Shown here one piece after another: positions 5,267-43,862 of a stretch of 64,000 nt of DNA. Made by a program: the position numbers and the translations under genes. Source of the DNA: Escherichia coli (GTDB taxonomy: Bacteria > Pseudomonadota > Gammaproteobacteria > Enterobacterales > Enterobacteriaceae); the NCBI RefSeq assembly GCF_001677475.2, contig NZ_CP015229.1. One strand, given 5' to 3'. Below the pieces are notes generated by a model, which did not search any database, had not been told where the DNA came from, and was given only the letters and a program-made list of their open reading frames with translations. Position 1 is the stretch's first letter. The number at the start of each line of letters is the position of its first letter.

Positions 5267-6565
<1,299 letters not shown>

Positions 6566-6571
6566 TTATTA

Positions 6572-9771
<3,200 letters not shown>

Positions 9772-42007: not shown

Positions 42008-43423
42008 GTGAAACAAAGCACTATTGCACTGGCACTCTTACCGTTACTGTTTACCCCTGTGACAAAAGCCCGGACACCAGAAATGCCTGTTCTGGAAAAC
42101 CGGGCTGCTCAGGGAGATATTACTGCACCCGGCGGTGCTCGCCGCTTAACGGGTGATCAGACCGCTGCTCTGCGTGATTCTCTTAGCGATAAACCTGCCA
42201 AAAATATTATTTTGCTGATTGGCGATGGGATGGGGGACTCGGAAATTACTGCTGCACGCAATTATGCCGAAGGTGCGGGCGGCTTTTTTAAAGGTATCGA
42301 TGCCTTACCGCTTACCGGACAATACACACACTATGCGCTGAATAAAAAAACCGGCAAACCGGACTACGTTACCGACTCGGCTGCATCAGCAACCGCCTGG
42401 TCAACTGGTGTCAAAACCTATAACGGTGCGCTGGGCGTCGATATTCACGAAAAAGATCACCCAACGATTCTGGAAATGGCAAAAGCCGCAGGTCTGGCGA
42501 CCGGTAACGTTTCTACCGCAGAGTTGCAGGATGCCACGCCCGCCGCGCTGGTGGCGCATGTGACCTCGCGCAAATGCTACGGTCCGAGCGCGACCAGTGA
42601 AAAATGTCCGGGTAACGCTCTGGAAAAAGGCGGAAAAGGATCGATTACCGAACAGCTGCTTAATGCTCGTGCCGATGTTACGCTTGGCGGCGGCGCAAAA
42701 ACCTTTGCTGAAACGGCAACCGCCGGTGAATGGCAGGGAAAAACGCTGCGTGAACAGGCACAGGCGCGTGGTTATCAGTTGGTGAACGATGCCGCCTCAC
42801 TGAATTCGGTGACGGAAGCGAATCAGCAAAAACCCCTGCTTGGCCTGTTTGCTGACGGCAATATGCCAGTGCGCTGGCAAGGACCGAAAGCAACGTACCA
42901 TGGCAATATCGATAAGCCCGCAGTCACCTGTACGCCTAATCCGCAACGTAATGACAGCGTACCGACCCTGGCGCAGATGACAGATAAAGCCATTGAATTG
43001 TTGAGTAAAAATGAGAAAGGCTTTTTCCTGCAAGTTGAAGGTGCATCAATCGATAAACAGGATCACGCTGCGAATCCTTGTGGGCAAATTGGCGAGACGG
43101 TCGATCTCGACGAAGCCGTACAACGGGCGCTGGAATTCGCTAAAAAGGATGGCAACACGCTGGTCATAGTCACCGCTGATCACGCCCACGCCAGCCAGAT
43201 TGTCGCGCCGGACACCAAAGCGCCGGGCCTCACCCAGGCGCTAAATACCAAAGATGGCGCAGTGATGGTGATGAGTTACGGGAACTCCGAAGAGGATTCA
43301 CAAGAACATACCGGCAGTCAGTTGCGTATTGCGGCGTATGGCCCACATGCCGCCAATGTCGTTGGACTGACCGACCAGACCGATCTCTTCTACACCATGA
43401 AAGCAGCCCTGGGGCTGAAATAA
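42008..43423 (+). CDS. phoA: alkaline phosphatase
   Basis: GTG-initiated [21 protein letters not shown] signal peptide, 471 aa; longest ORF begins at 41966. Confidence 0.96.
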
Positions 43424-43430
43424 AACCGCG

Positions 43431-43467
43431 CCCGGCCGTGAATTTTCGCTGTCGGGTGGTTTTTTTG
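43431..43467 (+). terminator. phoA intrinsic terminator (imperfect GC stem followed by a 7-T run)
   Basis: cccggccgtgaattttcgctgtcggg then tggtttttttg. Confidence 0.6.
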
Positions 43468-43541
43468 CTGTTAGCAACCAGACTTAATGGCAGATCACGG
43501 GCGCAAACGCTCATGGTTAAAACATGAAGAGGGATGGTGCT

Positions 43542-43862
43542 ATGAAAATAACATTACTGGTTACCTTGCTTTTCGGACTGGTTTTTTTAACCACCGTCGG
43601 CGCTGCCGAGAGAACCTTAACCCCGCAACAACAGCGTATGACCTCCTGTAATCAGCAGGCGACGGCGCAGGCGTTGAAAGGGGATGCTCGTAAGACCTAC
43701 ATGAGTGATTGCCTGAAGAACAGCAAGTCTGCGCCTGGTGAAAAAAGTTTGACGCCACAGCAGCAAAAGATGCGCGAATGTAATAATCAAGCAACGCAAC
43801 AATCTCTGAAAGGTGATGATCGTAATAAGTTTATGAGCGCCTGCCTCAAGAAAGCCGCCTGA
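43542..43862 (+). CDS. psiF: phosphate-starvation-inducible periplasmic protein
   Basis: Start chosen at MKITLLVTLLFGLVFL giving 106 aa; internal tandem repeat of the motif TPQQQ[RK]M..CN.QAT.Q.LKGD.R...MS.CLK. Confidence 0.92.
   Translation: MKITLLVTLLFGLVFLTTVGAAERTLTPQQQRMTSCNQQATAQALKGDARKTYMSDCLKNSKSAPGEKSLTPQQQKMRECNNQATQQSLKGDDRNKFMSACLKKAA

Follow-up and report, generated by a model that had tools for sequence, protein, structure and literature searches.

How is PsiF, a small protein of Escherichia coli encoded directly downstream of the alkaline phosphatase gene phoA, built, and what does its architecture allow us to say about its role? The question is raised by the sequence itself: a first-pass annotation made from the DNA had read the mature protein as essentially two copies of a module of about 40 residues with two cysteines each, suggesting a duplicated disulfide-stabilised periplasmic domain. 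Self-alignment, structure prediction and a look for single-module homologues were proposed there as checks, and one continuous fold without repeated units was named as the outcome that would speak against it.

Positions 43542..43862 (+) of the window, by which we mean the whole stretch of 64,000 nucleotides that was analysed, coincide exactly with the psiF coding sequence of the RefSeq annotation, 106 codons and a stop. The surrounding gene order is ddlA-iraP-phoA-psiF-adrA(dgcC)-proC-yaiI, in which phoA ends at 43423 on the same strand as psiF and the succession phoA-psiF-adrA is that of annotated E. coli genomes. An 801-bp query around the gene gave matches in 5425 of the 5426 complete E. 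coli genomes, the best being 99.6% identical and annotated phoA/psiF/adrA, and the encoded protein shares 99% identity with the PsiF sequence common in E. coli. The features of the locus are collected in Table 1.

An in-frame ATG at 43524 (+), 18 nt upstream of the annotated start, would give a 112-aa PsiF (MKRDGAMKITLL...), and an upstream start is used in some database entries (P0002; 124-aa versions). The position of the Shine-Dalgarno-like element favours the start at 43542, which is also the one used by RefSeq. The hairpin in the spacer before psiF is probably a leaky intrinsic terminator between both genes of the phoA-psiF operon, as judged from the sequence and its predicted fold; a simple terminator scan made no call for it on the plus strand. 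The stem-loop between psiF and adrA/dgcC may be either a stabiliser or a weak terminator. It has been reported that CpxQ, an envelope-stress sRNA, pairs near the psiF Shine-Dalgarno, a region at about 43528-43544 of the window, and represses PsiF protein (bioRxiv 10.1101/2025.09.11.675593), which connects a Pho-regulon protein with the Cpx response.

Table 1. Features of the psiF locus, with coordinates in the window and residues of PsiF.
Feature	Coordinates	Strand	Basis and details
Hairpin followed by U-run (U7) in the 118-nt phoA-psiF spacer	43422..43466	+	imperfect stem; RNA fold -23.9 kcal/mol, z = -3.1
Shine-Dalgarno-like AGAGGGA	43528..43534	+	8 nt before ATG 43542; read from sequence
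psiF CDS	43542..43862	+	translation; RefSeq annotation; NCBIfam NF008560 equivalog
Predicted signal peptide, residues 1-21 (MKITLLVTLLFGLVFLTTVGA, then AE)	43542..43604	+	n-region, hydrophobic core, V-G-A cleavage motif; sequence features
PsiF repeat module 1, residues 27-60 (TPQQQRMTSCNQQATAQALKGDARKTYMSDCLKN), Cys36 and Cys57	43620..43721	+	Pfam PF07769 stretch 27-59; predicted helices 28-42, 47-63
Inter-module linker, residues 61-70 (SKSAPGEKSL)	43722..43751	+	low pLDDT in both predictions: 49 (single sequence) and 57 (with alignment)
PsiF repeat module 2, residues 71-104 (TPQQQKMRECNNQATQQSLKGDDRNKFMSACLKK), Cys80 and Cys101	43752..43853	+	second PF07769 stretch; predicted helices 72-86, 91-104
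Perfect 11-bp stem-loop	43879..43906	+	17 nt after psiF stop; RNA fold -20.1 kcal/mol, z = -3.8; no clear U-run

The 106-residue protein consists of the predicted signal peptide and then the two modules, which align with each other gap-free, with 24 of 37 positions identical and 29 of 37 positive (BLASTP with compositional adjustment, E 8e-18). Each carries two cysteines in the spacing C-x20-C (codons at 43647, 43710, 43779 and 43842), and the turn glycines are Gly47 and Gly91, respectively. The half-versus-half Smith-Waterman score is 131 (z = 21), the shuffled sequences having a mean of 24.5 and a standard deviation of 5.0 (n=5000), and our own module HMM gives 65.8 bits for module 2. The self-alignment is thus highly significant and the claim of two tandem copies with two cysteines each stands, while the size given for the module has to be corrected: the duplication holds, with a conserved core of 34 residues that recurs every 44 residues (132 nt). 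The two peptides singled out in the first-pass annotation correspond to residues 27-60 and 71-104. No other PsiF modules were found encoded in the 64-kb window.

The mature protein, of about 9.5 kDa and pI 9.7, is rich in glutamine (12 of 85 residues) and in lysine and arginine (15 of 85), and the likeness of its halves could in principle come from such low complexity and not from a true duplication. This reading has practically no chance of being right, since composition-preserving shuffles reach 61 at most, the compositionally adjusted BLASTP keeps its significance, and a curated repeat HMM fits both halves; together they exclude a chance likeness. That model, Pfam PF07769 'psiF repeat' (PsiF_repeat, 34 positions), recognises two stretches in PsiF at E 8.7e-34 (115.5 bits versus a gathering score of 21), and the NCBIfam equivalog NF008560, 'phosphate starvation-inducible protein PsiF', covers residues 1-106 of 106 with 234.5 bits versus a cutoff of 165, so that the protein of the window is that very protein, with no difference. 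The repeat is therefore what defines this curated Pfam family, and it has little weight as a discovery. Its disulfide-stabilised reading is equally known from a published catalogue of SCREPs (secreted cysteine-rich repeat proteins), the ScrepYard paper, which names 'the PsiF bacterial domains' among disulfide-stabilised tandem repeats with linkers of <12 aa and includes PsiF in the linker analysis of its figure 2d, where the four domain types most frequent in each kingdom are shown (PMC9885460). Residues 5-61 also give a sub-threshold NCBIfam match to TIGR04453 'Lepto_8Cys' (E 2.4e-4, 21.5 bits versus a cutoff of 34), which could stem from remote kinship with a multi-module protein of Leptospira or from mere similarity of signal peptides.

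At the level of DNA the two copies agree at 74 of 120 positions, with only 15 of 40 third codon positions matching, and Tandem Repeats Finder reported no DNA-level repeat in psiF. The low third-position agreement and the missing DNA repeat point to an old event, and we read the internal duplication as real but old.

Structure prediction gave two repeated units and not a single continuous fold. AlphaFold2 was run on the single sequence (pLDDT 72.9) and with an alignment of 90 two-module homologues, 35-91% identical to E. coli PsiF and most of them 38-53% (pLDDT 77.9, pTM 0.38), and both runs placed the helices at 28-42/47-63 and 72-86/91-104 with the same topology. The hairpin blocks of the alignment run have pLDDT 88-95 (about 95 for the second hairpin) and are separated by the low-confidence linker at 61-70. 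The predicted PsiF is, in other words, a pair of helix-turn-helix hairpins.

The conservation pattern was taken from a profile in which 151 diverse proteins are represented by 329 modules. Nearly invariant are Gln6, Gln7, Met10, Cys13, Asn14, Ala17, Gly24, Arg27, Phe30, Met31, Cys34 and Leu35, the two methionines of each module being about 95% conserved. Exactly two cysteines are present in 324 of the 329 modules, with the spacing C-x20-C in 285 and C-x18-C in 38. Gly24, 98% conserved, forms the predicted turn, and the cysteines lie 11 and 10 residues to either side of it, so they would oppose each other across the antiparallel hairpin. The PsiF leader has the classical n/h/c layout with V-G-A before the predicted cut, and a hydrophobic signal-peptide-like leader is present in 132 of the 145 family representatives with enough N-terminus, from which we infer export to the periplasm. 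Exported proteins with paired cysteines are usually oxidised by DsbA. The leader, the two-cysteine modules and the symmetry of the cysteines about the glycine together suggest one putative disulfide per hairpin, and an intramodule bond is the natural reading of the predicted geometry.

How many such modules does a protein of this family carry? With a profile of one module, 2060 clusters were found at E <= 1e-3 among 1.84 billion representative proteins, and the detailed set of 151 proteins, composed of the best 150 of these clusters and a close E. coli match (P0001), contained two modules in 118 cases, three in 31, and four and five in one case each. There were no single-module homologues among the best 150 of the 2060 clusters, in a ranking which sums module scores and is thus biased against singles. 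A plasmid tblastn search with one module gave two apparent one-module candidates, from Methylobacterium and Azospirillum, and both proved to carry two modules.

A second sampling relied on exact matches to a degenerate DNA motif for G-D-x-R-K-x-F-M-[ST]-x-C-L, with one genome per species, and gave 120 loci, mostly from Gamma- and Betaproteobacteria with some Nitrospirae. It comprised 108 two-module genes, three three-module genes and nine apparent one-module ORFs, of which seven were rejected: five were cut by the ends of the loci, and two were halves of one gene. The latter belong to the symbiont genome of Candidatus Pantoea persica (L049, minus strand, roughly 6240-6670), where a break in the linker leaves the psiF homologue as two ORFs in different frames with one module each, probably a pseudogene or an assembly error. 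The other two ORFs are complete: a 74-aa protein of Ramlibacter humi, whose gene has its own ribosome-binding site AGGAGG, and a 53-aa protein from a Nitrosomonadales MAG, with a terminator-like hairpin and U-run 3' of its gene. A search seeded with the 53-aa protein returned 59 matches, 46 of which have one module, some on contigs up to 97 kb. Single-module homologues, the existence of which the first-pass annotation had left to be checked, are thus real, and most are laid out as a signal peptide, a spacer of 0-30 aa rich in Lys, Ala and Pro, the module and a stop.

The position of some of these genes is informative as to their origin. The single-module P0310 (68 aa; L124-L126, 3001-3207) is encoded directly downstream of rpoN-hpf-ptsN-hprK, and the same hprK-adjacent slot holds two-module genes in Accumulibacter, Zoogloea and Uliginosibacterium of the related Rhodocyclales (L094, L115, L052, L053, L091, L118), whose leader and spacer those of P0310 resemble. 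Another single-module protein, P0314, keeps a stump of module 2 ('...TQQDKMKADKKPS*'). The shared slot and the stump indicate that copy number changes within an orthologous locus, and judging by these sequences some single-module forms, at the least, seem to have lost a module. The PsiF module is a mobile unit whose copy number ranges from 1 to 5, two being dominant, and the linkers between modules are mostly 3-13 residues long, reaching 35.

Mean module identity is 0.603 for the same position, 0.600 for different positions and 0.672 within one protein, so that family-wide classes of 'first' and 'second' modules left no position signal, even as modules 1 and 2 are clearly distinct within Enterobacteriaceae. 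With 0.603 against 0.600 the number and age of the PsiF duplications cannot be fixed: a single ancient duplication does not follow from these values, and repeated duplication or loss, concerted evolution or saturation in a 31-residue core would all fit them.

The module also occurs in fusion architectures. P0215 (276 aa) begins with a region of about 185 residues devoid of PsiF modules and continues with two of them. P0146 and P0219 have two or three modules, a long Ala/Pro-rich spacer and a common C-terminal Cys-containing domain (...TVVW.NT.S..YH......YG.TKQGAYMC...). On a plasmid of Azospirillum ramasamyi (L003, 2935-3237) a two-module gene, its module 2 having the shorter C-x18-C spacing, lies among the genes of a [NiFe]-hydrogenase maturation cluster (hupU, large subunit, hyaD, hypC).

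The name of the protein points to phosphate, and phoA-psiF is reported to be positively regulated by PhoB (PMC10294691). Among the 120 motif-sampled loci phoA adjoins the psiF homologue in one only, that of Kluyvera (L070), and such adjacency was seen in none of the Yersinia, Serratia, Rahnella, Pantoea, Budvicia, Pseudomonas and betaproteobacterial loci. Pho boxes in the 200 nt upstream of 109 homologues scored no better than in shuffled sequence, in a crude test with the E. coli consensus only. A Pfam survey of upstream neighbours gave a heterogeneous collection, with EamA transporters, HPr kinase and ArgRS among its members, and showed no functional partner to be conserved. Taken together, these three results suggest that the phosphate link is local and not ancestral. 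The connection to phosphate starvation looks like an acquisition in the close relatives of E. coli, and outside of them the label 'phosphate starvation-inducible' may be a misnomer; it is also unlikely that the family started out with a task tied to alkaline phosphatase.

Two other readings of the same protein deserve to be weighed at this point. Both hairpins could pack as one four-helix bundle, the pair being the functional unit and the single-module proteins acting as homodimers. A lone 34-residue hairpin with one disulfide would expose a small hydrophobic face (Met10, Phe30, Met31, Leu35), two modules are by far the commonest state, and the linkers are short, as also reported in PMC9885460, all of which would suit a bundle. 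Against it, odd copy numbers (1, 3 and 5) are common and some linkers are much longer than the usual ones. The low pTM and the low-confidence linker beside confident hairpins mean, moreover, that no confident packing between the modules is predicted. We take the bundle to be somewhat unlikely, if a serious contender. Alternatively, the conserved cysteines, and the methionines with them, could form a redox-active or metal site, for instance for thiol-disulfide exchange in PhoA folding or for periplasmic Zn/Cu handling. PhoA requires disulfides and Zn and psiF is co-transcribed with it, the methionines are as conserved as described above, and psiF came up when overexpressed genes were screened for resistance to H2O2 (PMC8228696). 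Nevertheless, 20 residues separate the cysteines, which sit on opposing helices and do not resemble a CxxC redox or metal motif. The stripe of the helix-helix interface takes in the conserved Met, Phe and Leu, and the cysteines are invariant throughout the family, whereas the linkage to phoA is confined to close E. coli relatives. Such a site appears to us very improbable.

The account which we prefer, and consider highly probable as a whole, is that PsiF is an exported basic two-module protein of tandem-duplication origin, each module of which is an autonomous hairpin with a likely disulfide. According to it, this small and strongly basic protein would be exported to the periplasm, where each module of about 34 residues would fold on its own as a helix-turn-helix hairpin with Met10, Ala17, Leu22, Phe30, Met31 and Leu35 (module numbering) at the helix-helix interface. 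In the oxidising environment, through the DsbA pathway, Cys36-Cys57 and Cys80-Cys101 would most likely pair, giving one disulfide per module. The two-copy form would have arisen by tandem duplication of a one-module gene, with copy number labile thereafter.

As to function, our literature search found no paper that gives PsiF a biochemical one; a match in PMC12239559 concerned a 'PsifA' promoter and not PsiF. Overproduction of the protein is reported to alter persister resuscitation (bioRxiv 10.1101/2021.04.10.439273). The family is uniformly basic, with a median pI of 9.6 and 99% of members above 8.5. We may tentatively suggest that PsiF binds an anionic envelope or phosphate-bearing ligand in a multivalent manner, by means of a conserved Lys/Arg-rich surface; tandem copies would raise the avidity for the ligand, and in E. 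coli the protein would be expressed together with alkaline phosphatase under PhoB control. The mixed neighbours, the single phoA-adjacent locus and the lack of Pho-box enrichment described above argue against this idea, and we consider it doubtful. A more daring version, which we would call a long shot, makes the module a minimal self-sufficient periplasmic binder (of polyphosphate, nucleic acid or lipid/LPS phosphate) with its avidity tuned by 1 to 5 copies, sometimes within one locus. If true, it would provide a mechanism for a 35-year-old 'function unknown' Pho-regulon gene. In any case the results constrain every functional proposal, which has to accommodate an autonomous hairpin in 1 to 5 copies, a uniformly basic and secreted family, and a phoA/Pho-box link that is local. 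They also make PsiF a pointer to a core E. coli gene, part of one of the best-studied regulons, that is still without a function.

It would be logical to place PsiF among known proteins of similar build. A PDB sequence search gave no match to it, and Foldseek with the predicted model gave nothing at E <= 1e-3; the nearest folds of the same size, below significance and thus an analogy only, are disulfide-stapled helical hairpins, namely plant alpha-hairpinins and small Tim proteins. The alpha-hairpinins compared (vicilin-buried peptide VBP-8, 6o3q; nigellin-1.1, 2nb2; luffin P1, 6o3s) have a twin CX3C motif and two disulfides per hairpin, whereas PsiF has one cysteine per helix and no CX3C. In the mitochondrial intermembrane space, the small Tim and twin-Cx9C (CHCH) proteins, which form hexameric chaperones, likewise have two disulfides in each hairpin and a twin motif, CX3C or CX9C, which PsiF lacks, and there is neither sequence similarity nor a significant structural score between them.

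A close parallel is offered by the SCREPs (PMC9885460), defined by at least two homologous Cys-containing tandem domains, as PsiF has. Both share tandem Cys-containing domains and a short linker rich in proline, small and polar residues, the predicted leader of PsiF would correspond to the SCREP signal peptide, and the linker lengths of our family survey compare well with the limit given in that work. The SCREPs that have been studied well come from eukaryotes, where they are venom or inhibitor peptides; each of their domains has several disulfides, and their bivalent target is known. PsiF has a single putative disulfide in each domain and is without a known target. Should the proposed binder with copy-tuned avidity prove right, PsiF would be to bacteria what the bivalent SCREP ligands are to eukaryotes.
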